From Gammaproteobacteria bacterium (GTDB lineage Bacteria; Pseudomonadota; Gammaproteobacteria; UBA4575): DNA of 64,000 bases. The stretch is from NCBI GenBank assembly GCA_965205685.1, contig OZ242174.1, positions 5,219 through 69,218 of the forward strand. Reading direction: 5' to 3'. Every line of letters begins with the position of its first letter. The stretch's first letter is position 1. This document shows, in pieces, positions 1 to 35,691 of the stretch. The notes below the pieces were generated by a model. The model did not search any database. It had not been told where the DNA came from and saw only the letters and a program-made list of their open reading frames with translations. A program made the position numbers and the translations under genes.

Positions 1-761
1 AGCCAGAAGCCGAACGCGAACAGCGAAACAATCGCTGCGGCACCCAGCATCGACAGCGGCTCCGTTGCGTGAACCAGCCACCAGCCTGCGAGGCAGTAGA
101 AAAACGGCACCAGCACATAGTCGCCCCAGACCAGCATCCAGCCGAAACGCTCGCTGACGATGTCCCAGGTATGGATCATGCCGTGTTCGAACTGGAAGTA
201 GTTGAGAACATACAGGAACGTAAAGGCCTGGTAGAGCACCATGGCCAGGGTCAGCCCGCCGTAGGTTTCGTACTGCACGACGGCAAAGGACAGGTTGAAC
301 AGGGCCAGCCCGATCAGGGAGGGCCGGTAACTGAACAGCTTCAGGTCCACCCCGAGCCAGCTCGGGTTGAGTTCGACGCCGAAGAAAAAGCCTCGCCACA
401 ACCCCGGGGATGGTTCCTGGGTCCTCACCCCTCGCCAGTACAGCCAGACGGACAGGGCGAATGCGAATACGTTGGCCGCTACGAACAGGGCACCAAAGTG
501 AGTATAGAGCGCAGCGAGCGAAAACCAGCCCTGCATCTGGGCCATGCCTGCTACGATCACGGTCAACAAGAACAGCAGGAAGCCGTTGAGCTTGTACGTG
601 TTTACCTGGCCCGCCAGCTGCGGTCCGGTGATGCGATGCCCGGGCAACAGAATCGAGCCTGCGAACAGGGCACCGATAAACACCGCCAGCATGGTCGTGG
701 CCTCAAGCAGGGTCGCCCCCGACAGCAGAAACGGTTCGCCTGTGAGTTCAGGCAACGGCAC
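1..761 (-). CDS. ERG4/ERG24-family (sterol C-14/C-7/C-24 reductase-like) integral membrane reductase, N-terminal ~250 codons; the 3' part lies beyond the left window edge
   Basis: Absent from the ORF track because it runs off the window. My minus-strand translation reads ...LNYFQFEHGMIHTWDIVSERFGWMLVWGDYVLVPFFYCLAGWW...SMLGAAAIVSLFAFGFW. This matches the sterol-reductase signature (compare human DHCR7 [25 protein letters not shown]). Several hydrophobic segments. Candidate starts are GTG 761, TTG 755 and ATG 692; the first two overlap the Rieske stop. Confidence 0.7.
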   Translation of the reverse strand, partial: MPLPELTGEPFLLSGATLLEATTMLAVFIGALFAGSILLPGHRITGPQLAGQVNTYKLNGFLLFLLTVIVAGMAQMQGWFSLAALYTHFGALFVAANVFAFALSVWLYWRGVRTQEPSPGLWRGFFFGVELNPSWLGVDLKLFSYRPSLIGLALFNLSFAVVQYETYGGLTLAMVLYQAFTFLYVLNYFQFEHGMIHTWDIVSERFGWMLVWGDYVLVPFFYCLAGWWLVHATEPLSMLGAAAIVSLFAFGFW

Positions 762-1845
762 GGCCGTTTTCCGCCTCGCGCGCCAGATACTCCTGCCACT
801 TGCGCACGGTCACGTTCTGGAAGGCCTTGACCACTGGGTTGAACTCGATGGGTGGAGCGTCCCAGTGTTTCTCGTAGCCCAGCTGCTCGGCTTCGACCGC
901 ATAGCGGTCCTGATCCAACAGTGGTGCGATCAGCATGCGGTTCGACAGCTTCAGCACCGTGGCCATGGCAAAACGCGGTATATGGACCGGCAGCAGGGGA
1001 ATCTTCAGTGACTTGAAGTAGAACATGAAGAACACCCGTGTGGTGCGCTCATCGATCGGCAAGACGAACAGCCAGTGCTTGATCGCATCATCGGTGTTGG
1101 ACCACTGGTAAGGGTACTCGAAACACAGGTCCATGTGATTGGTGTCCAGTTGCCGGTGATCGACAAACCGCCCGGAGATACGCCCGCGCCCCACCTTCGT
1201 GTCATAAGCCAGATGCACGTTGTCGCCGATGGTCTCGCAACGCGTCAGGGTAGCGCCTTCAAAGGGACGGTAGCGACGGTGCAGATGAGCGTGTGTGAAA
1301 TCGCTGACGTTGTCGATAATCATGGAGTGGTGCGCGGACCAGGTGAAGCTCAACGGCACACACGCCCAGCGTTCCGGTCCTTCCAGTTCAGGGATGTCCG
1401 GGATCTGGCGTTCCTCGGCACGCTCTGGATTGCCTGGGAACAGCCACACCAGGCCATAACGGACCTTCACGGGATAGGCCCGGATGGAGGGCTTCGGAAG
1501 ACCGCCCTTGCTGGCATCATGAATGATGTCGACCCGGCGGCCCTCCTGATCATACTCCCAGCCATGGTAGGCGCATACCAGCTTGCAGCCCTGCACATCA
1601 CCCAGGGAAAGCTTGATCTGGCGATGCGCACAGCGGTTCTCAAGCGCATGGAATGAGCCATCGTTCGAGCGATACAGTGCAATCGACCGTTTCCAGAAGA
1701 TGATCTCGACTACGGTGCCCGGCTTGATGTTTCGCACCTCCTCGACCGCATACCAGTAATCCGGGTCGAGTCCGGTGGCGCGCACCTGCTGGCGCAGGTT
1801 GGTGGCCTGCTCAAAGCCCGGAGGCGGGTCCAACCTCGCGATCAC
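748..1845 (-). CDS. Rieske [2Fe-2S] non-haem iron oxygenase (SdmA / KshA / Neverland-like class)
   Basis: 365-aa ORF. Rieske motif CAHRQ-x17-CAYHGW and mononuclear iron motif DNVSDFTHAHLH. The GTG start shares the tetranucleotide GTGA with the stop of the upstream SDR gene. Confidence 0.85.
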   Translation of the reverse strand: MIARLDPPPGFEQATNLRQQVRATGLDPDYWYAVEEVRNIKPGTVVEIIFWKRSIALYRSNDGSFHALENRCAHRQIKLSLGDVQGCKLVCAYHGWEYDQEGRRVDIIHDASKGGLPKPSIRAYPVKVRYGLVWLFPGNPERAEERQIPDIPELEGPERWACVPLSFTWSAHHSMIIDNVSDFTHAHLHRRYRPFEGATLTRCETIGDNVHLAYDTKVGRGRISGRFVDHRQLDTNHMDLCFEYPYQWSNTDDAIKHWLFVLPIDERTTRVFFMFYFKSLKIPLLPVHIPRFAMATVLKLSNRMLIAPLLDQDRYAVEAEQLGYEKHWDAPPIEFNPVVKAFQNVTVRKWQEYLAREAENGRAVA

Positions 1846-2987
1846 GGCGGGCTCCCCTCAGAGGCGATGGAAATGTCCTCACCGGAGACGGGGTCTTGCA
1901 CCGCTCGCAGGGCTTCCTCGCGCGGGGGATTCGCCAGCGGGTTCTGGATCGCACCGCGGTGATAGTGGAACGCGTACGCCTGGTGTACTGCATCACGGAT
2001 GCTGGTAGGACAGTAGCCAAGCTCGCGCTTTGCCTTGCCGGTGTCCGCGTGGCGGCACTTTTTCAGCAGGCGGATGGCACCGGGCGTGAAGCGCTGCGGA
2101 AAGCTCGGGTGAAAGCGGCTGAGATAAAAGCTCGCCACTTCCGAGAAGGCAAGCATCATGTGCGTGGGGATGCGCCGGCCGGGCCGCGAGACGCCGGTGA
2201 CCTCCTCGTACAGGTCGAGAATCTCGGAGATCGTCTTGTATTCGCTGCTGAAAATGTACTTCTCGCCGGCGCACCCGTGCGCCATGCACAGCAAGTGTCC
2301 TTCCACGATGTCACGCGCGGCAACAAATTCAAATCCACCATCCACGTAGGCACGCAACTTGCCGTTGGTGTAGTCGCACAGGGTTCTGCCAAGGCGCGAG
2401 GGGAAATAGTCGGCACCCCCGATCACTGCACAGCAGGTGGCGACCATGACGTCCTGTCCCTGGGCCGCGGCACGCCAGCACTCGTGCTCGACGAGCGCCT
2501 TGCTGCGCTCGTACGGCATGGTGCGTTCCATGGGATAGAACTGCATCGTCTCGTCGCTGGGCAAGGACGGATTGTCCAGATCGTATCCGACTGCACTGAA
2601 CGAGCCCGTCACCACCACCCGTCCGGCCCCGGTTTCGCGCGCAGCCTGCAGCACGTGGCGGGTGCCCAGCACATTGCATTCGTAGATGTCACGGCGGTAG
2701 GCATGATTGCCCTCGATGGTGGAGATCATGGCCGCGACGTGATAGACGCCCTGGCAACCTTCAAGCGCACGCCGGGTGTCGTCGAGATCACGGATGTCCC
2801 CGTAGACGCGTTCCACCTCCAGCCCTTCTATGGCCTCATTGTTGTCCCCGTGTCGGAGTAACACGCGCACCCGGACCCCGTCCTCAAGCAGGCGCAGCAC
2901 GAGGTTGGCGCCAACGTGCCCGGCTGCACCGGTCACGAATACCGGCGGCGGCGAGGAACCATTGGAGGTGTTCAGTCCTGAAGTCAT
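1842..2987 (-). CDS. NAD(P)-dependent epimerase/dehydratase-family extended SDR (3beta-HSD / dihydroflavonol reductase / HpnA-like)
   Basis: ORF 1842..3143. The internal ATG at 2987 gives MTSGLN...VFVTGAAGHVGANLV (Rossmann GxxGxxG) and a YxxxK-type site (YERSK). The upstream 52 codons look like a spurious extension. Confidence 0.85.
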   Translation of the reverse strand: MTSGLNTSNGSSPPPVFVTGAAGHVGANLVLRLLEDGVRVRVLLRHGDNNEAIEGLEVERVYGDIRDLDDTRRALEGCQGVYHVAAMISTIEGNHAYRRDIYECNVLGTRHVLQAARETGAGRVVVTGSFSAVGYDLDNPSLPSDETMQFYPMERTMPYERSKALVEHECWRAAAQGQDVMVATCCAVIGGADYFPSRLGRTLCDYTNGKLRAYVDGGFEFVAARDIVEGHLLCMAHGCAGEKYIFSSEYKTISEILDLYEEVTGVSRPGRRIPTHMMLAFSEVASFYLSRFHPSFPQRFTPGAIRLLKKCRHADTGKAKRELGYCPTSIRDAVHQAYAFHYHRGAIQNPLANPPREEALRAVQDPVSGEDISIASEGSPP

Positions 2988-3259
2988 TGGACGGGCTGCA
3001 TGCGAGTCTAGAAGATCCTGGTTTTCCTGCTTTGCACAATCCGGTCGAGGTGGGTGCCTGGCCACGGCCCTGCGTTCCAAGATACACGCGTATGGTACCG
3101 CTACTGGTCTACCACTGACAATAGCGCGTCCCGTGTAAGCCACTGATTCATAACAATGGCAGGGCGAACTGCACGGACATCACCAACCGTGATGGAATTC
3201 CGTTGGAGGCGGCCGCCAAGCGTAGTAGAGTAGCAGCCTTTGATTTGCAGGTCGTAAGG

Positions 3260-4618
3260 ATGCCAAGGAAAGTTGCAATTATCGGTGCAGGGGTCTCGGG
3301 GCTGGGCGTGGCCTGGACCCTGCACCACAATCCCGAACGGTTCGATTTTCGAGTTTACGAGGCCCAGTCGCGTGTTGGCGGCAACGCCATCACGGTGGAC
3401 ATGCCGCAGGAGGATGGCAGTTCGATTCCGTTCGATATTTCCGTCACCGCCTGCATCCCCTCGGCCTATCACCATATCGTCCTGCTCATGCAGCAGTACG
3501 GCATCGATCTGGTCGATACCCGTTTCAGCTACAGCGTGAAATACAAGGGCGGGGTCTACGCGCACGATTTCGACTCCGATATCCGCAGGCAGTTGCTGCC
3601 TGAAATTGAGAAGTTCCAGAAGCTTCTGAGGCGCCTGAAATGGTTCGGCAGGCTCAACCGCTCAAGGTCTGCCCTGCTCAATGCGCTCAACCCGTTCAAC
3701 TACGTCAGCATGGGCACGTTGCTCAACCTCGGCAAATTCTCTGGGGACTTCCGCTACAAGATCCTCAAGCCCATGTTCGTCAACTTCCTGATGGCCACCA
3801 ACGTCTTCGACATGCCTGCAGCCCTGTTTTCCCGTTACCTGGAGTTCTTCGACATTGAAACTGCCACACCGATGCAGTCTTGGGACCAGGGTACACGACG
3901 CATCTACGAAAACCTGTCGGCGAAGTTCCAGGACAAGATCTATCTGGAGCGACCGGTGCACAAGGTGTACCGGCGCGAGAACGAGGTCGTCGTCGAGGAC
4001 GAGAACGGGAAAAGAGAAACCTACGATGACGTGGTGTTCGCGTGCAATGCGAACCAGTCGCTGATGATGCTGGACCAACCGACCTATCTGGAGAGCTGGC
4101 TGCTGTCCTCGGTCCGTTACGAGAGCGAACTGCATAACCATACGATCGTGCATTCGGATGCCTCGGTGCTGCCGGACACGGAGGTCAGGGAACTCGATAC
4201 CCGCAGCAACCACATCGAGCAGTACGGGGTGCGCCCGGACAATTACGAGATCACCTACATCATGCACAACCAGCAGCCCTGGGCAAAACGCTCGGACAAG
4301 CCCTGCCTGGTGACCTACAACCCGATCAGCCGTATCGATGAGGACAAGATCATCAAGCGGTGGTGGTTCCAGCACATCGTGCATGATGTGCGCCAGGTGG
4401 CTCTGCTCATCCTGATGTTTCGCTTCATCCAGGGCAAAAGGCGAACCTGGCACTGCGGCGCACACACGCTGATCAACAGCCAGGAGACCTGTTTCGTGAC
4501 CGGACTGGCCGCAGCAAGGCAACTCGGTGCAGACTACCCGTTCCAGGATGCCGAGGCGAGGCAGTGGTTCAACTTTTACGGCCGCATGATGTACGGCTGG
4601 CGCTTCAAGAAAGCCTGA
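3260..4618 (+). CDS. FAD-dependent oxidoreductase, amine-oxidase / COG2907-like
   Basis: ORF 3203..4618. The ATG at 3260 gives MPRKVAIIGAGVSGLGVAW...YEAQSRVGGN, a dinucleotide-binding fold typical of flavin amine oxidases. Divergent from the SDR operon. Confidence 0.8.
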   Translation: MPRKVAIIGAGVSGLGVAWTLHHNPERFDFRVYEAQSRVGGNAITVDMPQEDGSSIPFDISVTACIPSAYHHIVLLMQQYGIDLVDTRFSYSVKYKGGVYAHDFDSDIRRQLLPEIEKFQKLLRRLKWFGRLNRSRSALLNALNPFNYVSMGTLLNLGKFSGDFRYKILKPMFVNFLMATNVFDMPAALFSRYLEFFDIETATPMQSWDQGTRRIYENLSAKFQDKIYLERPVHKVYRRENEVVVEDENGKRETYDDVVFACNANQSLMMLDQPTYLESWLLSSVRYESELHNHTIVHSDASVLPDTEVRELDTRSNHIEQYGVRPDNYEITYIMHNQQPWAKRSDKPCLVTYNPISRIDEDKIIKRWWFQHIVHDVRQVALLILMFRFIQGKRRTWHCGAHTLINSQETCFVTGLAAARQLGADYPFQDAEARQWFNFYGRMMYGWRFKKA

Positions 4619-4690
4619 ACTGAAATGAGGCCAAGGCGGCCCGGAGGGCCTTCGGTAGGCTGGCCGAAGAATTTGTGTAACCATAAGGCT

Positions 4691-5827
4691 ATGGGCGACA
4701 CAAAAACTCAATTCTCTGCTCTGCGGGAGCCTCTGGATGTGATTCCATCCGAACTGGCAGCCCCGTCTGATTACGAGCGGCTTGCCTCCGAATTCATCGG
4801 GGCTGCGACCCTGGCACAAATTGCTGGCGGCAGCGGTGGCGAGCAATCCTTGCATGCAAACCTTCGGGCACTGGCAGACATCGAGCTGCACAGCCGAATT
4901 CTACAGAACCTCAAGGAAGCCTCAACGCGGGTTACGCTGCTCGGGCAGCCATTTCGGCACCCCGTGCTGCTCGCACCGGTGAGCGCACAAACCCTGGTGC
5001 ACCCTCAAGGAGAACTTGCCACTGCCGCAGGTGCCGCAGAACAGGAGGCAGGGCTCGTCGTCAGCACCCTAGCCTCCAAGCCTATGGAGGAGATCGCTGC
5101 ACAAACCGATGCGCCAAAGTGGTTCCAGCTCTACATTCAGCCTTCCCGCGAGCACACCCGGGCGTTGATTGACCGTGCAGAAGAAGCAGGCTTCGGCGCC
5201 CTCATGGTGACCCTGAACGCACCCATTCAGGCCCCCGTCTATCGCGCATTGAGAGCCGGGTTTGTCCTTCCCGATCAAGCCCGCCCGGCAAACCTGACCG
5301 ATTCAGCCCCCCGGCCGCAAGCCGTGCTTGAGCCTGATCAAAGCCCGGTTTTCCAGGGCGTGATGAGCGAGGCACCGGGCTGGGACGAGCTGGCCTGGGT
5401 ACTTGAACAGACCTCGCTGCCCACGATTGCAAAGGGGGTGACGCACCCGCAGGATGCCAGACGCCTGGTCGACATGGGCATCGACTGCATTGCAGTGTCT
5501 AACCACGGTGGCAGGGCTCTGGATGCGATGCCGGCCAGCATTCATTGCCTGCCCGAGATCCGCGAGGCCGTCGGTGACGATTTTCCGCTGCTCATGGATG
5601 GTGGGATTCGAAGTGGATACGACGTGTTCAAGGCCATTGCCATGGGTGCCGATGCCGTGATGATTGGTAGACTGCAAATCTATGCACTGGCTATAGCGGG
5701 TCGCCTGGGCGTGGCACACCTCATCAAGCTGGTTCGCAACGAGCTGGAATTCGCCATGGCACTGTCCGGGTGTGCATCGATTGAAAACATCGGCCGGGAG
5801 TGTCTTTTTGCAAGGACAAGCCTCTGA
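4691..5827 (+). CDS. FMN-dependent alpha-hydroxy-acid oxidase/dehydrogenase (glycolate / L-lactate oxidase family)
   Basis: ORF 4625..5827 with an ATG at 4691. Family motifs: KWFQLY, SNHGGRALD, DGGIRSGYDVFKAIAMGA. Confidence 0.85.
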   Translation: MGDTKTQFSALREPLDVIPSELAAPSDYERLASEFIGAATLAQIAGGSGGEQSLHANLRALADIELHSRILQNLKEASTRVTLLGQPFRHPVLLAPVSAQTLVHPQGELATAAGAAEQEAGLVVSTLASKPMEEIAAQTDAPKWFQLYIQPSREHTRALIDRAEEAGFGALMVTLNAPIQAPVYRALRAGFVLPDQARPANLTDSAPRPQAVLEPDQSPVFQGVMSEAPGWDELAWVLEQTSLPTIAKGVTHPQDARRLVDMGIDCIAVSNHGGRALDAMPASIHCLPEIREAVGDDFPLLMDGGIRSGYDVFKAIAMGADAVMIGRLQIYALAIAGRLGVAHLIKLVRNELEFAMALSGCASIENIGRECLFARTSL

Positions 5828-5969
5828 ACCCCATCCATGCTATCAACCATAGTTAGACGTTGGCAGATTTCGCGTTTCAGTTAACCTGAAATTCTTCCAC
5901 AATTCCGATTCTGAATTTCAAGGGTCATGTGTCCCCAGCCTTCAGCTTGCTGAGGATAACCGTACGTAG

Positions 5970-7862
5970 CTAGCTGCCCATCAGCTGGTCCCTATCATGG
6001 GAAACAGCCACTATGGCCGGACGCGGTGGCATGCTGGCATCAAAATCAGGCCATCGTGTCGAGGGGGTATAGAAACTCGACCCTTCACCGGGGTGTTGTA
6101 CGGAACAGAACATCGTTTTGTGATCCGGTGTGAAGCACGGGCTGCAGATCTCCGCCCCGCGGGGAGCACGCAGAAAATGGCGAGATCGGGCACGATGGCT
6201 CCCTTGGGTGCCGCTGACCCATATACCATCTGCTACGCCTTGTTTCCCAAAGCCGTCGGTTGCAATCCACAGATGACCGGAGCGATCGAACGTGCCGTTA
6301 TCCGGACAGGAAAACCAACCCTGTTCACTGATGTCCGGGTGATAGCGGGCCTCGTCCATCGGGCTTTTCGGGTCACCGGCAAGTATGAAAATCTCCCATG
6401 TGAACTCTGGGGCGGTGTGATCACCGACGGGCGCAATGAATTCAAGGATGTGTCCATGGCGATTGAATCCCCTCGGGTTGGCAGGATCGTCTGACAGCGG
6501 CTCACGCATCACGTTGTTCGTGAGGATCGCAAAGACGTGGCCCGTGATCGGGTTGACCTTGATCTCCTCGGGCCGGTCCATCGGGGTCGCTCCTGCAAGG
6601 TCTGCCGCCTTGCGCAGATCGATGACCACGTCCGCCTGGCTGGAGAAACCGTTTGCCGGCGTACAGGCACCCTGTCCCCATACCAGGGGATGCCAGATGA
6701 GCGTACCCCCTTCGGCGAACTCGGCCACCGACAGCTCGCCTCCATCCAGCAAGGTGCCGTTATGCTCGCTATCTCCCGGGCGATAGCGGTGCTTGCTGAC
6801 GAACCGGTAGATGTACTCGAAGGCCTGATCATCACCCATGTACACCACCACCCGTCCGTCCGGATTAATGACCACATCGCAGCCCTCGTGCTTGCAGCGT
6901 CCAAGCGCCGTTCGTTTCATCGGCACGGATTCCGGGTCGTACGGGTCGATCTCGACGATCCAACCGGCGTGCATTCCGGCCTGCGGGTGCAGGTCCAGGT
7001 TCCAGTGTTCGTGAAACATTCCCCAGGCCGAGAGGGCGACGTCGCTGCCGTGCATGCCAAAGCGCTTGTAACTCCTGATCTCATCGGTCAGCCTTGCCTC
7101 GCCCATGAAGTAAAACTGCACATTTTCTTCTGCCGTGAGTACCGTACCCCACGGGGTGATCTGTCCGGCACAGTTGCCGAACGTGCCCATGGATCCCACA
7201 CCCTCGGGAGAGAAAGCGGTCTTGAGCCTGTGGTGGCCACGGGCCGGACCGGAGAATCGCATTCCAGTCAGCGGTGTGATGCGCCGGTTGTATCCAGAGG
7301 CAAGGTTGGTCTTCCAGACACCCGCTTGCCGATATACCTCGATCACGGACAAGCCGTGTGCCTGCATCTCGATATCCACCTGTTCGCGACTCAGGCCAAA
7401 GGGGTCGGGTGCGCCCGGGTGCATCATGGCACTGCTCGCATACTCGTGGTTGACCGCCAGGAGACCGGATTTTGATGAGTGGGGGGCGCCCTGCAAGGGG
7501 AGCCAGGCGAGAAAATCATTGTTGTATCCGAATTGCCTGGCCTGGGCCTCGGGCGTTTGCCGGTATGGATCAAAGGTCGGGGCATCACCAAACAGGGGAT
7601 CGCCCCAGGCGAGCACGACCTGCCAGGCATAGCCTTCCGGCACATGCAGGGTGTCATCGAGCCCGTGGGACAACTCCTTGAACGAAGGTGAAGACTCCAT
7701 TCCCGAGGCCAGTGCCTGGCCGAGTAATGTCGATTGTGCACCGGCGAGCGCGGAGCCTTTCAGGAAGGTGCGCCGTGCGATACGACGCTCTAGGATTTCA
7801 CGAAACGGTGTCGAGCGATGTTCGCGCGGTACCGGGAAATCATCCACATCCAGACTGCTCAT
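5970..7862 (-). CDS. phoX: PhoX-type alkaline phosphatase (DUF839) with Tat signal
   Basis: 630-aa ORF. Twin-arginine signal RRTFLKGSALAGA, AVNHEY motif, beta-propeller-like length. Confidence 0.8.
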   Translation of the reverse strand: MSSLDVDDFPVPREHRSTPFREILERRIARRTFLKGSALAGAQSTLLGQALASGMESSPSFKELSHGLDDTLHVPEGYAWQVVLAWGDPLFGDAPTFDPYRQTPEAQARQFGYNNDFLAWLPLQGAPHSSKSGLLAVNHEYASSAMMHPGAPDPFGLSREQVDIEMQAHGLSVIEVYRQAGVWKTNLASGYNRRITPLTGMRFSGPARGHHRLKTAFSPEGVGSMGTFGNCAGQITPWGTVLTAEENVQFYFMGEARLTDEIRSYKRFGMHGSDVALSAWGMFHEHWNLDLHPQAGMHAGWIVEIDPYDPESVPMKRTALGRCKHEGCDVVINPDGRVVVYMGDDQAFEYIYRFVSKHRYRPGDSEHNGTLLDGGELSVAEFAEGGTLIWHPLVWGQGACTPANGFSSQADVVIDLRKAADLAGATPMDRPEEIKVNPITGHVFAILTNNVMREPLSDDPANPRGFNRHGHILEFIAPVGDHTAPEFTWEIFILAGDPKSPMDEARYHPDISEQGWFSCPDNGTFDRSGHLWIATDGFGKQGVADGIWVSGTQGSHRARSRHFLRAPRGAEICSPCFTPDHKTMFCSVQHPGEGSSFYTPSTRWPDFDASMPPRPAIVAVSHDRDQLMGS

Positions 7863-7965
7863 TTTCTATCGAGCTCCCCGGGGTTGCAGGGCAATAAACG
7901 ATGGCTGATTGTAGCAGGCCTTTGCTGTAGGCCCGTGACAGGATTGCTGGCGGACCGTTTGCAGG

Positions 7966-9066
7966 TCAGGCGGAACTCGGCAGGTCCGGAAATGCGCTGG
8001 CCACCCCTGCATGGGTGATTTTACCGCCATGGAGATTGAGAGCCTCTCGCACGCCGGCTTCATACCCGAGAAAACCCTCAAGCCCGAGTCCGGCCAGCTT
8101 GCGGATATAGGGCAGCGTAGCGTTGCAATATGCCTGGGTGCTGGTGCGGCCTACCGCACCCGGCATGTTAGGGACACAATAGTGCACGATGTCATCGATC
8201 ACGTATACCGGATCGCTGTGAGAGGTGCGCCGGCTGGTCTCGAAACACCCGCCCTGATCGATGGACACATCCACGAGGACGGCACCGCGCTTCATCTCAC
8301 CCAGCATTGCGCGGTTGATCAGCCTCGGTGAGCGTGCACCGGGTATCAGCAAGGCACCGATGATCAGGTCCGCCTGCACGGCGTACTGGTGCACAGCATG
8401 GGGATCGCAGTAGATAGTCGTGACATTGTCCGGCATGACCTCATCGAGGTGCCTGAGTCTTCCAATATCGATATCCATGATGGTGACGTTGGCACCGAGC
8501 CCGGCTGCCACCCGTGCGGCGTTGGCGCCCACCACGCCAGCACCCAGCACCAGCACATTGGCCGGGGCCACACCAGCCACCCCGCCAAGCAGGATGCCGC
8601 GTCCCATCATCGGGCGCTCCAGGCATTTCGCACCTTCCTGGATCGACATCTTGCCGGCCACCTCGCTCATGGGTTTGAGCAGCGGGCGCTCACCTCTCGG
8701 ATCGCCCAGCGTCTCGCAGGCCAGCGCCGAGATATTTTTTTCAAGGCAGGTCTCGACCAGAGGTCTTGAGACCGCCAGATGGAAATACCCGAAGACCATC
8801 AAGGAGTTCGCGTAGTGCCCGATCTCGGACATCTGTGGCTCCTTGACCTTGAGCAGCAACTCGCATTCCTGGTGGATGGTCTCGGCCGAGTCCACGATGC
8901 GTGCACCGGCCTTTTTGTATTCCTCGTCCAGATAGCCGCTGCCCTTGCCGGCCAGGGTCTGCACCCACACCTCGTGGCCATCGTCGACCAGCAACTGGGC
9001 ACCGACCGGCAGCAACGACACCCGGTACTCGTCGACCATGATCTCCTTCGGGACTCCTATCCTCAT
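7966..9066 (-). CDS. ald: alanine dehydrogenase
   Basis: 366 aa. N-terminus MRIGVPKEIMVDEYRVSLLP and NAD fold VLGAGVVGANAA are typical of Ald. Confidence 0.9.
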   Translation of the reverse strand: MRIGVPKEIMVDEYRVSLLPVGAQLLVDDGHEVWVQTLAGKGSGYLDEEYKKAGARIVDSAETIHQECELLLKVKEPQMSEIGHYANSLMVFGYFHLAVSRPLVETCLEKNISALACETLGDPRGERPLLKPMSEVAGKMSIQEGAKCLERPMMGRGILLGGVAGVAPANVLVLGAGVVGANAARVAAGLGANVTIMDIDIGRLRHLDEVMPDNVTTIYCDPHAVHQYAVQADLIIGALLIPGARSPRLINRAMLGEMKRGAVLVDVSIDQGGCFETSRRTSHSDPVYVIDDIVHYCVPNMPGAVGRTSTQAYCNATLPYIRKLAGLGLEGFLGYEAGVREALNLHGGKITHAGVASAFPDLPSSA

Positions 9067-9073
9067 AACGGCA

Positions 9074-10315
9074 TTATCCCAGAACCAGCTTCCAGATGTC
9101 TTCCAGAATGGCCTTCAGATGCAAACAAAACCGGGCGGCCTCGGCTCCATTGATGACCCGGTGATCATAGGACAACGAGAGCGGCAGAAAATTCTGCGAG
9201 GAGGCACCCTGCGGGGATGAGCCGGCACGCACGATCATGCGTGACAGGCCCAGGATGGCCACCTCGGGCGGATTGATAATCGGCGTGAAGGCCTGACCGC
9301 CGATATGCCCGAGGCTTGTGACCGTCATGCTCGCACCGCCCATCTCGTCCGGTCTCAACTTTCGCTCGCGGGCACGCTGACCAAGGTCTACCACCTCGAT
9401 GGCCACCTCTGCCAGCGTCTTTTTGTCCACATCGCGCAGTACCGGCACCAGCAACCCATGCGGGGTGTCCACGGCGATGCCGATGTGGAAGAACTTTTTC
9501 AGCACGACACACCCGTTCGCTGCGTCGTAGGAGGCATTGAAACGCGGGAACTCGGCCAGTGCGTCGGCCAGGGCCTTGATGACAAAGATCGGTGGCGTAA
9601 GTCGCAGTCCCCGGAACTTTGCCTCCTCGGCCAGCTGGGCACGATAGGCCTCGAGGGCGGTCACATCGGCACGCTCGAAATGGGTGACGTGCGGGATGGA
9701 TTGCCAGGCCGAAAGCAGGTTCTCTGCAGTCAGGCGCTGGATTCGGGTCAGGGGTTCTTCCTCGGTGTCCCCGTACTTGGAAAAGTCCGGCAGGGGGGCC
9801 GGGGCTGGCGCAGAAGGCGCGGACGAAGACTTCAGGCTGGTGCGCACATGCTGTTCGATATCTTCCTTCAAGACCCGCAGTCCGCGCCCGCTGCCCTGTA
9901 CGTGCTCAAGCGAGACCCCGAGTTCACGGGCATAGCGGTACATGGCCGGGCTGGCGTAGGCTCGAGGAATTGCCCCAGGTGGTGCCGGTACGGGTTCGGG
10001 GTTCAGTGCGGGTTCGCGCGATACCGGAGTCTGCTCCTCTTCAAGCGAAGACGGCCTTGCGTTGGGCGCGGGTGCAGTAAGCTCAAGAGCGAGCAATGCA
10101 TCCCCTTGCGCCATCTGGTCACCGGGCTGCACGTGGAGCTTGCCCACCACGCCGGCATGCGGTGACGGAAACTCCACCAGGGCCTTGTCAGTCTCCAAAG
10201 TGGCCAGGGGCTGGTCGACCTCGACGGTCTCGCCCACCTGCACCAGAATCTCGACCACGTCCACCGGAGCATCGTCTTCAAGCTCGGTGATGCAAATGTC
10301 CTTGAGTTGGCCCAT
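9074..10315 (-). CDS. aceF: dihydrolipoamide acetyltransferase (PDH E2), single lipoyl domain
   Basis: 413 aa. Lipoyl motif LETDKA, a PSBD segment, and catalytic SLSYDHRVINGA at the C-terminus. Lies immediately downstream of E1. Confidence 0.9.
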   Translation of the reverse strand: MGQLKDICITELEDDAPVDVVEILVQVGETVEVDQPLATLETDKALVEFPSPHAGVVGKLHVQPGDQMAQGDALLALELTAPAPNARPSSLEEEQTPVSREPALNPEPVPAPPGAIPRAYASPAMYRYARELGVSLEHVQGSGRGLRVLKEDIEQHVRTSLKSSSAPSAPAPAPLPDFSKYGDTEEEPLTRIQRLTAENLLSAWQSIPHVTHFERADVTALEAYRAQLAEEAKFRGLRLTPPIFVIKALADALAEFPRFNASYDAANGCVVLKKFFHIGIAVDTPHGLLVPVLRDVDKKTLAEVAIEVVDLGQRARERKLRPDEMGGASMTVTSLGHIGGQAFTPIINPPEVAILGLSRMIVRAGSSPQGASSQNFLPLSLSYDHRVINGAEAARFCLHLKAILEDIWKLVLG

Positions 10316-10321
10316 GTATGA

Positions 10322-13027
10322 TCAGTTGTGCACCGGGGGTGGTTTTTCGGGATCCAGCCGGTATTTTTTTATGGCAGCGCCGATGTGCTTGCGCTCGATA
10401 GTGCCTTGCTCGACCAGCGTGTGCAGAGTCGCCACCACAATGGACTCGGCATCGACCTCGAAGTAACGGCGCAGGCTCTGGCGGGTATCGCTTCGTCCGA
10501 ACCCGTCGGTACCGAGCACGACATAAGGGGCCTTCACATAGGGACGGATCTGGTCAGCATAGATTTTCATGTAGTCCGTGGCTGCCACCACCGGCGCATC
10601 GCTACCTTCGAGGCATGTCTCGACGAAGGACCTTCGCGCCTTTTTCCTGGGATGCAGCATGTTCCAGCGTTCCCCCTCCATGCCTTCTCGGCGCAGCCGA
10701 TTGAAGCTCGTCACACTCCAGACCTCGGCACGGATGCCGAAATCCTCAAGCAGCAAGACTGCCGCGCGGATGACCTCCCGAAGAATCGCCCCGCTGCCGA
10801 GCAATCGTACCTGCGCCTCGTTCCCGGGCACTTCCTGCAGGCGGTACATGCCCTGGATGATGCCGGGCTCGCAACCGGTGGGCAGGGCCGGGTGCTCGTA
10901 GTTCTCATTGGTCACCGTGATGTAGTAATACCAGTCCTTCTGTTCCACGTACATGGCTTCAAGCCCATGGTGGATGATGACAGCAAGTTCATAGGCGAAG
11001 GCCGGGTCGTAGGCTCGGCAGTTGGGAATCGTGGAGGCAAGTACATGGCTGTGCCCGTCCTGGTGCTGCAGTCCTTCACCTGCCAGGGTCGTGCGCCCGG
11101 AGGTGCCGCCGATCAGAAAGCCCCGTGCACGGCTATCCCCGGCTGCCCAGGCCAGATCGCCGACCCGCTGAAAGCCGAACATGGAGTAGAAAATGTAGAA
11201 CGGGATCATCGGCATGTTATGGATGCAAAAGGAGGTGGCCGCGGCAATCCAGGAGGACATGGCACCAGCCTCGGTGATGCCCTCCTCAAGGATCTGTCCC
11301 GCGCGGTCTTCGCGGTAGACCAGCACCTGGTCGGAATCCACCGGGTCGTACTGCTGGCCACGGTGCGCGTAGATCCCGAGGCTTCGGAACAGGCCCTCCA
11401 TGCCGAACGTGCGCGCCTCATCCGGCACGATCGGAACGATGTGGCGGGCCAGCGCCTTGTCCCGTGTCAGGGTCAGCAGGATGCGGACGAAAGCCATGGT
11501 GGTGGAATACGAACGGCCCTTGCTGCCGTCGAGCAATTCCCTGAAAGCCTTAAGCTTTGGTATCTTCAGCTCGATCGTCGGGCTCTCGCGCCTTGGCATT
11601 TCGCCATGCAGCTTTTCGCGCAGGCGCCTGAGGTAGCGCATCTCGGGGCTGTCCTCGGGCGGCTTGTAGAACGGCACATCTTCGAGATCAGCGTCACTGA
11701 TCGGGATGCGGTAGCGGTCGCGAAAGGCGACCAGGGATTCGTGCGCCGGTTTTTTCAGCTGGTGGGCGATGTTCAGGCTTTCGCCGCTCTTGCCAAGCCC
11801 GTAACCCTTGACGGTCTTGGCAAGGATCACGGTCGGCTGGCCGGTGTGGGCCACCGCACGCGCATACGCGGCATAGATTTTCTGCTGATCGTGGCCGCCG
11901 CGGTTCAGCCGCCAGATGTCATCGTCAGTCATGTGCTCGGTCATCTTCACCAGTTCCGGGTATTTTCCGAAGAAGTGCTCGCGCACGTAGGCGCCCCCCT
12001 TGGCACGGTAATTCTGGTAGTCGCCGTCGACCGCCTCCTCCATGCGCTTTCGAAGGATGCCGTGCTTGTCGCGGGCAAACAGCGGGTCCCAGTTGCCGCC
12101 CCAAAGCACCTTGATGACGTTCCAGCCTGCACCGCGGAAATTCCCCTCGAGTTCCTGGATGATCTTGCTGTTGCCACGCACCGGTCCGTCCAGTCGCTGC
12201 AGGTTGCAGTTGATCACGAAGATCAGATGATCGAGTTCCTCACGCGCAGCCAGCGAGATGGCGCCCAGCGATTCGGGCTCGTCCATCTCGCCGTCTCCGG
12301 TGAACACCCACACCTTACGGCTGCCCTTGTCGATCAGGCCGCGGTCATGCAGGTAGTTCATGAAGCGCGCCTGGTAGATACCCATGATCGGTGCGAGCCC
12401 CATGGACACCGTCGGGAACTGCCAGAAGTCCGGCATCAGCCAGGGATGCGGATAGGAGGACAGGCCCTCGCCTTCGACCTCACGCCTGAAATTCAACAGC
12501 TGCGATTCGCTCAGGCGCCCGTCGAGGAAGGCGCGTGCATATACCCCGGGTGCGGCATGGCCCTGGAAGTACACCAGGTCACCGGCAAACTCGCCGTTGG
12601 CCGGGCGAAAAAAATGATTGAAGCCGATGCTGATCAGGGTGGCCGCCGAGGCGTAGGTGGAGATGTGTCCGCCAAGCTCGGGGTGTTTCAGGTTGGCTTT
12701 GACGACCATGGCGAGCGCGTTCCAGCGCTCGAGCGAACGTACCCGGTGTTCCATGCGGGGATCACCCGGCAGACGCGCCTCCTCTTCGACCGGGATGGTG
12801 TTGACGTAGGCCGTGGTGTTTCGAAACGGCAGGTTCACGCCTTGGATTCGCGCACTGTGGATGAGCTGCTCGATGAGATGATGGGCACGCGTTGCCCCAT
12901 CTCGCTCGAGTACTGCATCGAGGGCGGCCAGCCACTCCCGGGTCTCCTGCGGGTCGATGTCCTGCCCGAAGGTATCAGGCTCCGCAGAAGACGAAGGCTC
13001 GGGTTTTTGAGGGCGCGGGTCGGACAT
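10322..13027 (-). CDS. aceE: pyruvate dehydrogenase E1 component (homodimeric type)
   Basis: 901 aa. Typical AceE length and motifs (GDGEMDEPES, ThDP-binding region). Adjacent to aceF. Confidence 0.95.
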   Translation of the reverse strand: MSDPRPQKPEPSSSAEPDTFGQDIDPQETREWLAALDAVLERDGATRAHHLIEQLIHSARIQGVNLPFRNTTAYVNTIPVEEEARLPGDPRMEHRVRSLERWNALAMVVKANLKHPELGGHISTYASAATLISIGFNHFFRPANGEFAGDLVYFQGHAAPGVYARAFLDGRLSESQLLNFRREVEGEGLSSYPHPWLMPDFWQFPTVSMGLAPIMGIYQARFMNYLHDRGLIDKGSRKVWVFTGDGEMDEPESLGAISLAAREELDHLIFVINCNLQRLDGPVRGNSKIIQELEGNFRGAGWNVIKVLWGGNWDPLFARDKHGILRKRMEEAVDGDYQNYRAKGGAYVREHFFGKYPELVKMTEHMTDDDIWRLNRGGHDQQKIYAAYARAVAHTGQPTVILAKTVKGYGLGKSGESLNIAHQLKKPAHESLVAFRDRYRIPISDADLEDVPFYKPPEDSPEMRYLRRLREKLHGEMPRRESPTIELKIPKLKAFRELLDGSKGRSYSTTMAFVRILLTLTRDKALARHIVPIVPDEARTFGMEGLFRSLGIYAHRGQQYDPVDSDQVLVYREDRAGQILEEGITEAGAMSSWIAAATSFCIHNMPMIPFYIFYSMFGFQRVGDLAWAAGDSRARGFLIGGTSGRTTLAGEGLQHQDGHSHVLASTIPNCRAYDPAFAYELAVIIHHGLEAMYVEQKDWYYYITVTNENYEHPALPTGCEPGIIQGMYRLQEVPGNEAQVRLLGSGAILREVIRAAVLLLEDFGIRAEVWSVTSFNRLRREGMEGERWNMLHPRKKARRSFVETCLEGSDAPVVAATDYMKIYADQIRPYVKAPYVVLGTDGFGRSDTRQSLRRYFEVDAESIVVATLHTLVEQGTIERKHIGAAIKKYRLDPEKPPPVHN

Positions 13028-13160
13028 GGCGATACGGTATACTTGAGATTCAACGCTAGTGTAATTGTAGACCGGATACGCGGGTCATGCGTACTTTGTC
13101 CGCAATCGCCTGATGGCTGCGGATACTGACCGCACCGGCCCATCCAGACCTGGATTTAAC

Positions 13161-14835: not shown

Positions 14836-16092
<1,257 letters not shown>

Positions 16093-16634: not shown

Positions 16635-16827
16635 TCGACTGTTTCTCCCTATCCGAAATAATAAAGTGATGTTCGTGAAAGCATGCGCTCGAAACGGCGC
16701 ACTCGGGATCTTGCAGACACTGCCTGCACCTCTAATTTTATGCATTCCTGACAGGATTACAAGCCCAGACCCTCAATCCGTCACAACAACGGGGTTGGCA
16801 AGCGGTGTGAGGGCAGCCGAGCGTCCG

Positions 16828-17502
16828 CTAGATTTCTGTCACCGCCTCAGATGGCCAGTCCAGTTCGTCCTCGTCGACATGATGGGTTTCTTTCAGGGCC
16901 AAGCAGATCCATTCGCGGATGGAGGGGCACTTGTCCATGGTGCGGCAATAGTCCGTGGCCGTTTCATCGAGCTCCACCTCAACACTTCGAAAGCGCATGA
17001 TCGCCGGGGCAGACAGGGTATCCGCAACCGTGGGTTTTCCGAACAACCAGGGCCCGCCCTTGCCGAAGTTCTCCCGGCAGTAGCGCCACAGGTCCTGAAT
17101 CCGGCGCAGGTCGGCAAGTGCCTCTTCACTGAGGGTGTAGCCGGGGAACCGCTTGCGCAGGTTCATGGGGGCCTCGGTGCGCAGGGCCTCGAAGCTGGAA
17201 TGAAATTCCGCACACACGGAGCGTGCCACCGCACGGGCCTTGCGGTCCTTAGGCCAGGCGTGCGACTCGGGAAAGCGCTCCCCCAGGTATTCCAGGATGG
17301 CCAGCGAATCCCATACCTCAGTGTCCCCGTCGAGCAAGACCGGCACCTTGTCGCCGGAAAATCGTTTCGAGAGCACCTGGTTCAGCTTGTCGCTATTCAG
17401 GTCGTAGCACTTCACCTCTACCGGCAGCTCGTGGCGGTGCACGAACAGCCAGGCGCACATCGACCAGGTGGAATAGTTGTAGTTACCAATGATCAGTTTC
17501 AT
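16828..17502 (-). CDS. glutathione S-transferase family protein
   Basis: ORF 16828..17568. The ATG at 17502 gives MKLIIGNYNYSTWS..., and the VPVLLDG...WDSLAILEYL segment is typical of a GST N-domain. Confidence 0.85.
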   Translation of the reverse strand: MKLIIGNYNYSTWSMCAWLFVHRHELPVEVKCYDLNSDKLNQVLSKRFSGDKVPVLLDGDTEVWDSLAILEYLGERFPESHAWPKDRKARAVARSVCAEFHSSFEALRTEAPMNLRKRFPGYTLSEEALADLRRIQDLWRYCRENFGKGGPWLFGKPTVADTLSAPAIMRFRSVEVELDETATDYCRTMDKCPSIREWICLALKETHHVDEDELDWPSEAVTEI

Positions 17503-17692
17503 AAAGGGATGCAACCTAGTACAGGAGTTCAGTCGGGGCACGGAGTGTACCCGGTTCAGGCCGATCAATCACGACCTAAACAATTTTTTTTGAAACCTTG
17601 CTTCCGGCCCGGCTACAAGATAAGGAATGCCGCCTAAAAATTATCTATAGTGGTGCTCCATCATCAAAGAAATCGCAAGGAGCTGTTCTCAC

Positions 17693-20597: not shown

Positions 20598-21641
20598 TCA
20601 TCCTATTACTTGTTGCAAGGCCTTGCTGACGGGGGCTGCCAGACCAATCTTTTCACCGGTGGCTTTATACCAAACCCCGACATCATCTTCCATTACACCA
20701 ATGGGGTTGTGATCTATCTGCACCACCGTAGGGTGCATGTAAAGTCGAAAGTGTGAGAAGGTGTGAGTAATCACAGGCAATGTCCTTGTTACCAAGTTGT
20801 CTGTCTTGTATATCTTATCCAGCCACTTCTGCACATCTACTTCTTTCTCGAATTCCGGAAAACTGTAGAGTCCGCCCCAGATCCCTGCTGAAGGACGTTT
20901 TTCCAGCCACACGGCATTGTCCTTGTTCTGAACCATCACGACGTGCACGTCCCGTTTCGGCAGATCACGGGACGGACGGGGCACAGGCAACTCATGTTGG
21001 CGACCTTTTCCGGATGCGATGCAACTTTCGCGAACCGGGCACAGCAGGCAGGCGGGTCGTGTACGGGTGCACAGTGTGGCACCAAGATCCATCATGGCCT
21101 GTGTATAGTCCGCAAGACGATGTTGTGGCAGCAGTGACTCCGCATGGGCCCAAAGCTGCTTCTCCACCTTGGCCTCGCCCGGCCACCCTTCCACCGCAAA
21201 ATATCTTGCAAGCACGCGCTTGACATTCCCATCCAGTATGGCGTGACGCTGGCCAAAGCCCAGGGCCAGGATCGCAGCAGCGGTGGACCGCCCCACGCCC
21301 GGCAGGGCGTTCACTGCGGCCATGTCTTCAGGAAACCTTCCTTGGTTCTGTTTGCAAAGTTCTCGTGCAGCTTCGTGCATGTTGCGTGCACGCGCGTAGT
21401 ACCCCAAGCCTGTCCAGTAATGCAGCACCTCATCTACCCCTGCAGCGGCCAGTTCCTGTACATTCGGAAAGCGTCGCATGAATTTTTCATAGTACGGGAT
21501 TACTGTATCCACGCGCGTCTGCTGCAGCATGATTTCCGATACCCAGATTCGGTATGGATCGCGATCACGTTGCCAAGGCAAATCTTTGCGGCCATGCTGA
21601 TCAAACCAGGTCAGAACCCGGTCGCTGAAATCGCTGCTCAT
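20598..21641 (-). CDS. mutY: A/G-specific adenine DNA glycosylase
   Basis: 347 aa. HhH-GPD region ([12 protein letters not shown]), a 4Fe-4S cysteine cluster, and a NUDIX-like C-domain. Confidence 0.93.
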
Positions 21642-35034: not shown

Positions 35035-35691
35035 TTATGCCAGTTTGTTGAAACGCTTATGCAAGGGGCTAGTACGTGGGAAATGTGCCAGCAAAAACTT
35101 CATCTGGTCAGCGAGTACACGATGCCCCTGCAAAAAAATGTATTCTGCATGAGTGGGAGTAAAAGGAATTGCAAGCAACTGCATGTTGGCCTGCTCGGGG
35201 GTTTGCCCGGCTTTATGATTATTGCAGCGCTTACAGGCAGTGACGACATTGTTCCAGTCATCATAACCACCCTGGCTCAGAGGGCGCACATGATCTCTTG
35301 ACAAGTCACGTCGAGTGAATTGTTGGCCGCAGTACATGCACAGGTTGGCATCCCGCTTGAACAATGCACGATTATTCAGGGGAGGGATATAGCTGTCATG
35401 CAAGGAGCGGTTGCTGCCCTGTGTGGCAATGATGGAATGGACCTCGATTTGACTGCGAAGACCACTGCGCGCATTGATGCCGCCGCGTACAACATACAGG
35501 CGCTCTCCGCAGGTATAGGCTACCTGCTCAATATGGTACAGGCGTACCGCATCCTGGTAATTCACCCATTCCATGGGCATGCCTGATACATCCGTGCGTA
35601 GTATTTGTAGGTTGAAGTTGTTCACTGGTTCACCGAAGCCACTCACAACGAGGCCAGAACACACTTTGTCGCACTTGTAAGATTGGAGCAT
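35035..35691 (-). CDS. HNH endonuclease family protein
   Basis: 218 aa. CMYCG...DHVRPLSQGG...NVVTACKRCNNHK (HNH/His-Me finger). Confidence 0.8.
   Translation of the reverse strand: MLQSYKCDKVCSGLVVSGFGEPVNNFNLQILRTDVSGMPMEWVNYQDAVRLYHIEQVAYTCGERLYVVRGGINARSGLRSQIEVHSIIATQGSNRSLHDSYIPPLNNRALFKRDANLCMYCGQQFTRRDLSRDHVRPLSQGGYDDWNNVVTACKRCNNHKAGQTPEQANMQLLAIPFTPTHAEYIFLQGHRVLADQMKFLLAHFPRTSPLHKRFNKLA

Follow-up and report, generated by a model that had tools for sequence, protein, structure and literature searches.

Does the left edge of a 64,000-nt stretch of DNA from a gammaproteobacterium (GenBank assembly GCA_965205685.1, contig OZ242174.1, positions 5,219 to 69,218; the whole stretch is referred to below as the window) encode enzymes that modify ready-made triterpenoids, or a part of a complete sterol pathway, and do the two flavin enzymes encoded next to them belong to it? 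Positions 1-3143 hold, on the minus strand, three overlapping reading frames for a short-chain dehydrogenase/reductase (SDR), a Rieske oxygenase and an ERG24-type reductase, which an earlier note, made from the sequence alone, had described as a polycyclic-triterpenoid-modifying operon. Our analysis indicates that positions 1-2987 very probably represent the first three genes of a five-gene operon for de novo sterol synthesis in a sponge-associated gammaproteobacterium (Thiotrichales-like lineage of metagenome-assembled genomes, MAGs), accompanied by a probable accessory gene for a flavin adenine dinucleotide (FAD)-dependent enzyme that travels with the cluster, and that the neighbouring gene for a flavin mononucleotide (FMN)-dependent enzyme is not part of this system. 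Gene identities, synteny, distribution and linkage were observed directly. The features of the region are as follows:

1..761, minus strand: predicted delta14-sterol reductase, N-terminal part (Pfam ERG4_ERG24; match of the full-length protein from locus L003 to 4QUV)
748..1845, minus strand: SdmA-like Rieske non-haem-iron oxygenase, 365 amino acids (aa) (best match NF052579)
1842..2987, minus strand: SdmB-like extended SDR, 381 aa (best match NF052578; frame open to GTG 3143)
2988..3259, no strand: divergent intergenic region between the sdmB-like gene and the FAD enzyme gene (putative promoter match)
3260..4618, plus strand: COG2907/LkcE-type FAD-dependent oxidoreductase, 452 aa (Pfam, AF2/Foldseek and linkage)
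4691..5827, plus strand: FMN-dependent alpha-hydroxy-acid oxidase, 378 aa (Pfam FMN_dh and PDB matches)

The Rieske protein gave its best match to the NCBIfam model for the 4beta-methylsterol monooxygenase SdmA (NF052579; 410 bits, residues 17-360 against positions 4-349 of the 351 of the profile). With regard to the aromatic-ring, PaO and choline clades, which the earlier note had named as the alternative, the next family was an aromatic dioxygenase subunit at 34 bits. Pfam assigned a Rieske and a VanA_C domain, with KshA_C being marginal (E=0.0075), and the protein carries both the CxH-x17-CxxH cluster motif (CAHRQIKLSLGDVQGCKLVCAYH) at residue 72 and a His-rich mononuclear-iron motif (NVSDFTHAHLH) at residue 179. 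An exact look-up of the window protein (748..1845) gave no match and its genomic context was taken from homologues; an SdmB-type SDR partner is adjacent, and CYP51 and a squalene epoxidase/oxidosqualene cyclase (SE/OSC) are linked, among others in locus L003 (Gammaproteobacteria bacterium COS4_bin_31, JAPOYL010000009.1). The SDR in turn matched best to the SdmB model (NF052578) with 301.6 bits, compared to 224.8 bits for HpnA, in addition to Pfam Epimerase (9.7e-34) and 3Beta_HSD (6.8e-20), and contains GAAGHVG at residue 20 (GxxGxxG dinucleotide motif) and YERSK at residue 159 (YxxxK). Its open reading frame (ORF) extends over 433 aa from GTG 3143, but the called homologue starts at the equivalent of ATG 2987 (381 aa), and ATG 2987, not GTG 3143, is most likely the start. 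The Rieske protein is thus predicted to be a sterol C-4 methyl oxidase and the SDR a sterol C-4 decarboxylase/3-ketoreductase of the 3beta-HSD/decarboxylase type.

The third gene does contain the sterol-reductase signature claimed for it (HTWDIVSERFGWMLVWGDYVLVPFFY). Its frame is open from position 770 downwards, so that the gene leaves the window and therefore had been omitted from the ORF list, as supposed. The fragment within the window comprises the first 253 codons, with about 113 C-terminal codons missing, and matches Pfam ERG4_ERG24 with 126 bits (E=1.9e-36). Its 3' end could be recovered from L003, whose full-length protein of 366 aa is identical to the fragment at 252 of 253 positions and carries GRHLNYTGE, i.e. 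the xRHxNYxGE/D cofactor signature, in its C-terminal part, a stretch located outside the window. The best PDB match of this full-length protein was the delta(14)-sterol reductase MaSR1 (4QUV; E=4.2e-74, residues 26-366), and the full-length homologue of locus L001 (GCA_009838405.1, VXRR01000014.1) scored 244 bits for ERG4_ERG24 against 30 bits for DUF1295, which groups the reductase with delta14-sterol reductases and not with the non-sterol homologues. Since the ERG4/ERG24 family also comprises DHCR7 and ERG4, we infer the regiospecificity, and thereby the presumed action as a delta14-sterol reductase, from the best match and from the position of the gene immediately upstream of CYP51.

With regard to the arrangement of the three genes, the note had correctly described the GTGA at 1842-1845 as common to the SDR stop codon and the Rieske GTG start codon (4-nt overlap), and the Rieske TGA at 748-750 as lying in the start region of the next gene, where the reductase frame offers GTG 761-759 and TTG 755-753. 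GTG 761 is the likely reductase start and gives a 14-nt overlap with the Rieske gene; the overlap is 14-20 nt in relatives. The overlapping stop and start codons of all three genes suggest translational coupling. In the divergent intergenic region, we detected one sigma-70-like match on the minus strand (3121-3092), compared to 0.2 expected from shuffled sequences, which represents a putative promoter; a search of the same region for a terminator found none. The region is kept only in close relatives (99% in L003, 87% in L004 and 74-83% in L005-L007).

The continuation of the operon was obtained from L003, which is 98.96% identical to window positions 1-4317 at the nucleotide level and extends in the direction missing from the window. 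The order of genes there is ERG24 (366 aa), a P450, an SE/OSC fusion, a convergent methyltransferase and rpoD. The fusion protein, with an ORF of up to 1206 aa, consists of an N-terminal FAD-hydroxylase-type region and an oxidosqualene cyclase domain that scores 744 bits for 2,3-oxidosqualene cyclase (TIGR03463) against 257 bits for hopene cyclase. In L001, the homologous fusion protein has 1113 aa and a Pfam squalene-epoxidase domain, and the homologue of the methyltransferase has a Sterol_MT_C domain. The cyclase, CYP51 and squalene epoxidase, which the note had left to be sought elsewhere in the genome, were in this way located in L003 beyond the position of the window edge, the cyclase two genes past it. 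Three outcomes had been set beforehand as refuting a sterol function, namely a non-sterol reductase, an aromatic Rieske oxygenase and the lack of a cyclase, and all three came out for the sterol reading.

In a scan of one genome per species, the Rieske gene had 345 relatives; the best 80 of them are 74-99% identical and derive nearly all from MAGs with names or isolate codes that point to sponges. Linkage was counted for 83 Rieske-anchored loci, of which +/-10 kb were seen, at thresholds of at least 50% identity and coverage. The SDR was present in 81, ERG24 in 79, a CYP51-like P450 in 80, the SE/OSC in 78 and the sterol C-24 methyltransferase (SMT) in 57 of these loci, in a gene order that was nearly always identical; a collinear ERG24-CYP51-cyclase arrangement together with sdmAB and SMT was found in L003, in L004-L006 and in at least 75 further loci. 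The cluster occurs at 74-99% protein identity in sponge-symbiont MAGs of at least five phyla. Three neighbour families obtained by crude six-frame ORF clustering of these GC-rich loci (fam8, fam11 and fam12) were antisense artefacts and were ignored. Since CYP51, SE/OSC and SMT are present in L003 and in most loci, the three window genes are not an isolated tailoring module; the sterol chemistry proposed by the note stands by virtue of the SdmA, SdmB and ERG24 matches, but its restriction to tailoring gives way to a de novo cluster.

The operon would thus consist of sdmB-like, sdmA-like, erg24 and cyp51 genes and a gene for a fused squalene epoxidase/oxidosqualene cyclase, followed by the SMT gene on the opposite strand. 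In the proposed pathway, the fusion protein would epoxidise and then cyclise squalene, CYP51 would remove the C-14 methyl group, and the ERG24-type reductase would reduce the resulting delta14 bond. The Rieske oxygenase would then convert a C-4 methyl group to the acid, the SDR would decarboxylate this acid and re-reduce the 3-ketone, and the methyltransferase would alkylate C-24. The characterised SdmAB homologues differ in that those of Methylococcus take off one C-4 methyl group and those of Calothrix both (Lee et al. 2023, PMC10202945), and therefore the number removed here cannot be read from the sequence. The divergently encoded FAD enzyme is probably a dispensable accessory that travels with the cluster and, by analogy to UfaD, the C-C bond that it would most likely dehydrogenate or isomerise lies in the sterol or in its side chain.

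Starting at ATG 3260, the FAD enzyme comprises 452 aa, the commonest length among the 120 closest homologues. Its earlier label as COG2907-like is correct, as it matches Pfam Amino_oxidase and NAD_binding_8 and shows full-length COG2907-type homology; the glycines of its N-terminal GxGxxG motif (G9, G11 and G14) are invariant. Among PDB entries, only LkcE (1.4e-19) and a fatty-acid isomerase of Propionibacterium acnes (7e-6) were related by sequence over the full length. LkcE was also the top Foldseek match (TM 0.87/0.90, root-mean-square deviation of 2.3 Å) of the structure predicted by AF2 from a diverse alignment of 52 sequences (pLDDT 92.3), and the next matches, monoamine oxidases and others, reached at most 0.68. 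At 28-30% identity over 93-96% of its length, the enzyme resembles plasmid-borne FAD oxidoreductases. Its nearest annotated relatives are FAD oxidoreductases in operons of the type ChrR/sigmaE, DUF1365 and cyclopropane fatty acid (CFA) synthase-like protein (L083 and L084), and the only IMG name among its relatives is 'predicted NAD/FAD-binding protein'. The clade in sponges is tight, with at least 120 sequence clusters that are 81-96% identical across phyla, and isolated, with one full-length representative at 60% and the next at 36% identity in a library of 1.8 billion proteins. An identity as hydroxysqualene dehydroxylase (HpnE) was rejected, as TIGR03467 gave 21.4 bits from the N-terminal FAD motif only, compared to a cut-off of 283. 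The same identity was also rejected for P0254, a 34-36%-identical relative whose gene is flanked by those for an HpnC/D-like synthase and an HpnE-like oxidase, with a polyprenyl synthase gene adjoining.

The FAD enzyme gene and the Rieske gene were no more than 10 kb apart in 31 of the 83 loci, and these loci span Gammaproteobacteria, Nitrospirales, Binatia, Thermodesulfobacteriota and Pseudomonadales. Its position varies: the gene is divergent from the SDR gene, lies directly after SE/OSC on either strand, is found beside SMT or adjoins genes for a KshA-like Rieske protein and a GPP34-P450 fusion. P0241, the homologue with 60% identity, is encoded between a cyclase and ERG2_Sigma1R and ERG4_ERG24 genes, in a cluster of 70.7% GC whose remaining proteins share only 43-62% identity with those of the window type. 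There was no association between FAD enzyme and methyltransferase, since SMT is present in 23 of the 31 loci with and in 34 of the 52 loci without the FAD enzyme. Neither Brown et al. 2023 (PMC10070321) nor Kelly et al. 2022 (PMC9531527) mentions a COG2907-type FAD enzyme, and we found nothing on an amine-oxidase or FAD enzyme in bacterial sterol clusters within the searchable library; its link to sterol clusters thus seems to be undescribed. The COG2907 enzyme UfaD (RSP1091) of the furan fatty acid pathway desaturates a methyl-branched acyl chain (Lemke et al. 2020, PMC7380195). Based on this family chemistry (UfaD, the fatty-acid isomerase and phytoene-desaturase-like relatives) and on the linkage, we consider it fairly probable that the FAD enzyme has an accessory role in sterol or triterpenoid metabolism, in which it would dehydrogenate or isomerise a C-C bond.

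A divergent sterol cluster of 70.7% GC from a high-GC organism (L091:2548-13340, ERZ25039602 contig_52744) has separate SE and OSC genes and also encodes an SDR, a P450, an SdmA-like Rieske protein, an RMD1-3 domain protein, the 60%-identical FAD enzyme, ERG2_Sigma1R and a 403-aa ERG4/ERG24 protein. Many of its genes are broken up, for which frameshifts in long reads are the probable cause.

The FMN enzyme probably starts at ATG 4691 (378 aa) and is a full-length FMN_dh TIM-barrel protein according to Pfam (379.5 bits, E=1.9e-113). Its best PDB matches were L-lactate oxidase (7F22, 2.5e-87) and HAO1 (4.5e-64), and its scores were below the equivalog cut-offs for LldD and lactate oxidase.

Several points count against a de novo sterol operon with a mobile FAD accessory, and they have to be weighed together with the rival explanations. 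The SdmA and SdmB scores (410 and 302 bits) are both below the NCBIfam equivalog cut-off, which is 600 bits for NF052579 as well as NF052578, and therefore the proteins are named SdmA-like and SdmB-like and are not treated as equivalogs; the names of both models point to Methylococcales, on whose proteins they were built. The cyclase, CYP51 and SMT lie outside the window and were taken from the 99%-identical contig, neither a squalene synthase nor a redox partner for the Rieske protein or the P450 was found within the 64-kb window, and the enzymatic steps, the resulting sterol and what the FAD enzyme acts on are all predictions. The window itself, with tailoring-type enzymes only, would also fit a salvage or tailoring of sterols or triterpenoids taken up from the sponge host, whose tissue is rich in sterols, and a modification of host sterols by symbionts has been discussed (Brown et al., PMC10070321). 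This is nevertheless quite unlikely, as the SE/OSC fusion and CYP51, which only a de novo synthesis would require, are part of the same operon in the 99%-identical contig and in 78 of the 83 loci. Likewise, the HpnA match of the SDR (224.8 bits), the C-terminal VanA_C domain of the Rieske protein and the weak DUF1295 match of the reductase could be read as a hopanoid or aromatic operon made up of an HpnA-like epimerase, a VanA-like O-demethylase and a DUF1295-type membrane protein. However, SdmB exceeds HpnA, the aromatic oxygenase models all fall short of SdmA by more than 370 bits, ERG4_ERG24 is preferred to DUF1295 (244 against 30 bits) with 4QUV as best PDB match, and the linked cyclase clearly sides with the oxidosqualene cyclases (744 against 257 bits). 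Judged by these score comparisons, a hopanoid or aromatic operon is effectively refuted.

The flavin enzymes call for the same weighing. A two-gene unit of both oxidases extending the sterol chemistry would be in line with their adjacency on the same strand, 6-72 nt apart depending on the start, and with the conservation of the pair in L004, L006 and L013. We regard it as improbable, since the FMN gene was found by the cluster in 5 of the 83 loci only, all from close gammaproteobacterial relatives sharing a backbone of alanine dehydrogenase, PhoX and pyruvate dehydrogenase (PDH) E1/E2. Moreover, each gene also occurs alone: L001 and L007 have kept the FMN gene and lost that of the FAD enzyme, and the reverse is true of L005. 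The close match of the FMN enzyme to L-lactate and glycolate oxidases and the position of its gene beside alanine dehydrogenase and pyruvate dehydrogenase fit a lactate-to-pyruvate metabolism. As pyruvate is common to lactate oxidation and to the reactions of both dehydrogenases, the gene is most simply read as a backbone metabolic gene at the pyruvate node which is not part of the sterol system. The suggestion of the earlier note that both flavin oxidases may extend the chemistry thus probably holds for the FAD enzyme, with its varied arrangements in 31 loci, but not for the FMN enzyme, which is confined to one lineage. For the FAD enzyme, the counts have to be read with care, as the 83 loci are phylogenetically related and 31 of 83 overstates the number of independent linkage events. 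The gene is not within 10 kb in 52 of the 83 loci, was deleted from two close relatives (L001 and L007) which kept the cluster, and is unlinked from the cluster in one genome (L085 versus L057), and therefore the enzyme is dispensable for the core pathway. LkcE, moreover, oxidises a polyketide amide C-N bond and not a C-C bond, and sterols offer no such bond. These facts would equally suit an enzyme that is not sterol-related, i.e. a COG2907 lipid desaturase or LkcE-like amine/amide oxidase encoded by a mobile sponge-symbiosis gene that is often near the cluster, as would the substrates of the characterised-type relatives (methyl-branched fatty acyl chains for UfaD, a polyketide amide for LkcE) and a copy in a Bacteroidetes MAG without a core sterol gene within 8 kb. 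We take this explanation seriously and yet find it rather doubtful, given the linkage in several arrangements and several phyla, the 60%-identical homologue by ERG2 and ERG4/24 inside a far more divergent sterol cluster, and the fact that the usual COG2907 partners (DUF1365 and the CFA-synthase-like protein) are never beside the copies in the sponge loci; even the neighbours of the Bacteroidetes copy are the same KshA-like Rieske protein and GPP34-P450 fusion that flank sterol clusters elsewhere. Within the preferred reading of an accessory sterol enzyme, we tentatively propose, as one possibility, that the FAD enzyme is an unrecognised sterol-tailoring desaturase or double-bond isomerase, acting on the nucleus or on the C-24-alkylated side chain, and belongs to a mobile accessory set together with the KshA-like Rieske protein, the GPP34-P450 fusion and a 244-aa membrane protein without family match.

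The distribution of the cluster and its mosaic pattern of identity support horizontal transfer. The gammaproteobacterial copy shows 74-81% protein identity to copies from Nitrospirales, Binatia, Thermodesulfobacteriota, Alphaproteobacteria and Opitutales. In L001, the backbone (window 4458-13122) is 94% identical at the nucleotide level and the sterol genes (1-3172) only 84%, and the stretch in between (3173-4457), which includes most of the FAD gene, is cleanly deleted at the junction; the deletion in L007 is similar. This mosaic suggests that close lineages have recombined, or that the allele of the cluster was replaced between them. The earlier note had in addition considered the block as GC-rich, TGA-terminated and acquired from a high-GC donor. 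The composition as such is correct, with a GC content of ~0.60 and mostly TGA stops, but the donor is not supported, since housekeeping genes of the window are equally GC-rich, so that the sterol block does not stand out as foreign by its composition. The window has ~60% GC from base 1 to ~16-20 kb and ~50% thereafter. For the three sterol genes and the gene of the FAD enzyme, GC content at third codon positions (GC3) amounts to 0.76-0.81, compared to 0.73-0.79 for the genes for alanine dehydrogenase, aceF, aceE, patatin and rho, and within what appears to be native housekeeping DNA it steps sharply from 0.73-0.81 up to rho (14836-16092) to 0.54-0.60 from mutY (20598-21641) on. A chimeric assembly was rejected as the cause of the step at 16-20 kb, as both the order of genes across it and the GC change recur in the independent contigs L088 and L090.

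The contig of L003, the closest public one to the window, starts inside the FAD gene (its match covers window 1-4317), at a place where relatives vary in the presence of the FAD and FMN genes, which suggests that strain-level variation breaks assemblies there. Locus L089 contains an extra gene for a 2OG-Fe(II) oxygenase of 227 aa between PhoX and the FMN oxidase (L089:20169-20852, minus strand), as well as an integrase and a restriction-modification pair upstream of an OMP gene; the neighbourhood is therefore variable between strains. Further along, from 6 to 64 kb, the window encodes ordinary housekeeping functions, including genes for PhoX, alanine dehydrogenase, PDH E1/E2, patatin, Rho, MutY, DegP, DnaJ, YicC, RNase PH, ferrochelatase, PriA, ArgRS, NadA, polyamine synthesis, Amt and a TonB receptor, and no further sterol gene was found in this part. 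It also contains a stand-alone HNH endonuclease gene between ferrochelatase and priA (35035-35691, minus strand) and a 323-aa ORF without Pfam match (16666-17637, plus strand).

Several other genes recur next to the sterol clusters. A trio encoding a KshA-like Rieske protein, a COG2907-type FAD enzyme and a GPP34-cytochrome P450 fusion mostly abuts the cluster, in L014, L018 and L025 (Binatia), in L017 and in L028, L033 and L036 (Nitrospirales). In Bacteroidetes SB0662_bin_6 (L086:6872-11576), the three genes apparently form a unit by themselves, the surrounding 8 kb being free of core sterol genes. GPP34-P450 fusions have been read as phagocytosis-evasion factors, and sterols are never mentioned in that account (2025, PMC11706023); their linkage suggests a possible role as P450s in sterol tailoring. 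A multi-pass membrane protein of ~244 aa is encoded beside the sterol cluster in 26 of the 83 loci from several phyla, e.g. at L027:16980-17714 (minus strand), L002:18816-19550 (plus strand) and L013:18315-19052 (plus strand). It had no match in NCBIfam or, even at E=10, in Pfam, by which an identity as EBP/EXPERA protein was rejected, and it is a candidate for a missing sterol step, e.g. a double-bond isomerase. An MMPL/RND transporter with weak similarity to sterol-sensing domains, HpnN and BstA was present in 17 loci (e.g. L028:18672-20966, minus strand), and LolA-like and tetratricopeptide repeat (TPR) proteins were found near the cluster in 10 loci each, mainly in Nitrospirales (L045:1968-2813, plus strand, and L037:5283-6056, minus strand). 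Together, these transporter, LolA-like and TPR proteins may form a sterol export system.

Sterol synthesis by sponge symbionts bears on the reading of 24-isopropylcholestane and related steranes as animal (sponge) biomarkers and on the transfer history of sterol pathways between bacteria and eukaryotes. To this debate, the core cluster of the window adds nothing new; what could matter is the accessory enzyme set. Bacterial enzymes that finish sterols, by double-bond isomerisation, desaturation at C-5, C-7 or C-22 or reduction of the side chain, are still being found one by one, and the recent ones reportedly include a GGR-type C-24 reductase (2025) and an NTF2-type 8,14-reductase (2026). Because of its tight conservation, its linkage to sterol clusters and its 60%-identical homologue in a distant sterol cluster, the FAD enzyme can reasonably be put forward as a candidate for one of the tailoring steps still missing from bacterial sterol synthesis, and it can be tested in the existing E. 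coli lanosterol expression system. If the reading of the accessory set is true, the GPP34-P450 fusions would be sterol-modifying enzymes, against the published account of phagocytosis evasion.

Compared to known systems, the FAD enzyme is likened to UfaD through the type of operon in which UfaD is found and not through the sequence of UfaD itself, the identity to members of such operons being 28-30%. Both enzymes adjoin a lipid methyltransferase system dependent on S-adenosylmethionine, but the partners DUF1365 and CFA-synthase-like protein are absent from the window and from the recurrent neighbour families of the 83 loci; as the gene context differs, the FAD enzyme was not filed as a UfaD orthologue. 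The closest solved structure is the lankacidin amine oxidase/cyclase LkcE (6F32/6F7L), with a sequence match over residues 4-434 at an identity of only 21%. The reductase has the ERG4/ERG24 fold in common with MaSR1 of Methylomicrobium alcaliphilum (4QUV) and ERG24/TM7SF2; the homology of the full-length L003 protein extends into its C-terminal part, and this protein is shorter than MaSR1 (366 versus 427 aa). With SdmA/SdmB of Methylococcus capsulatus (MCA1016/MCA1017) and the systems of Calothrix sp. NIES-4105 and Enhygromyxa salina (SdmAB(C)), the operon shares the pair of Rieske protein and extended SDR, the full-length matches to the SdmA and SdmB models and the clustering with cyclase and CYP51, and it differs by the scores below the Methylococcales-based cut-offs. 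Comparable proteins from sponge clusters are 44-47% identical to MCA1016 and MCA1017 and ~52% to Calothrix SdmB (PMC10070321, supplement).

The closest likeness is to the clusters of sponge symbionts published before. 'Clusters of steroid genes' with ERG24, CYP51 and LSS were reported from 115 of 537 Ircinia MAGs in 10 phyla, with evidence of horizontal transfer; sdmAB were not annotated there, but noted as possible among the unannotated genes (Kelly et al. 2022, Microbiome, PMC9531527). Clusters from sponge metagenomes with sdmA, sdmB, ERG24, ERG11, ERG1/ERG7 and SMTs were described by Brown et al. 2023 (Nat Commun, PMC10070321, Fig. 3), who assayed the SMTs and found them functional, and whose methods include fused SMO/OSC homologues. 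The operon studied here has the same set of genes in the same order (sdmB, sdmA, ERG24, CYP51 and fused SMO/OSC, plus SMT), the same habitat in demosponge MAGs, the same spread over many phyla and the same inferred horizontal transfer, so that with regard to the core there is no substantial difference. The core of the window is a further copy of this published cluster type, in a lineage already represented in public MAG collections.

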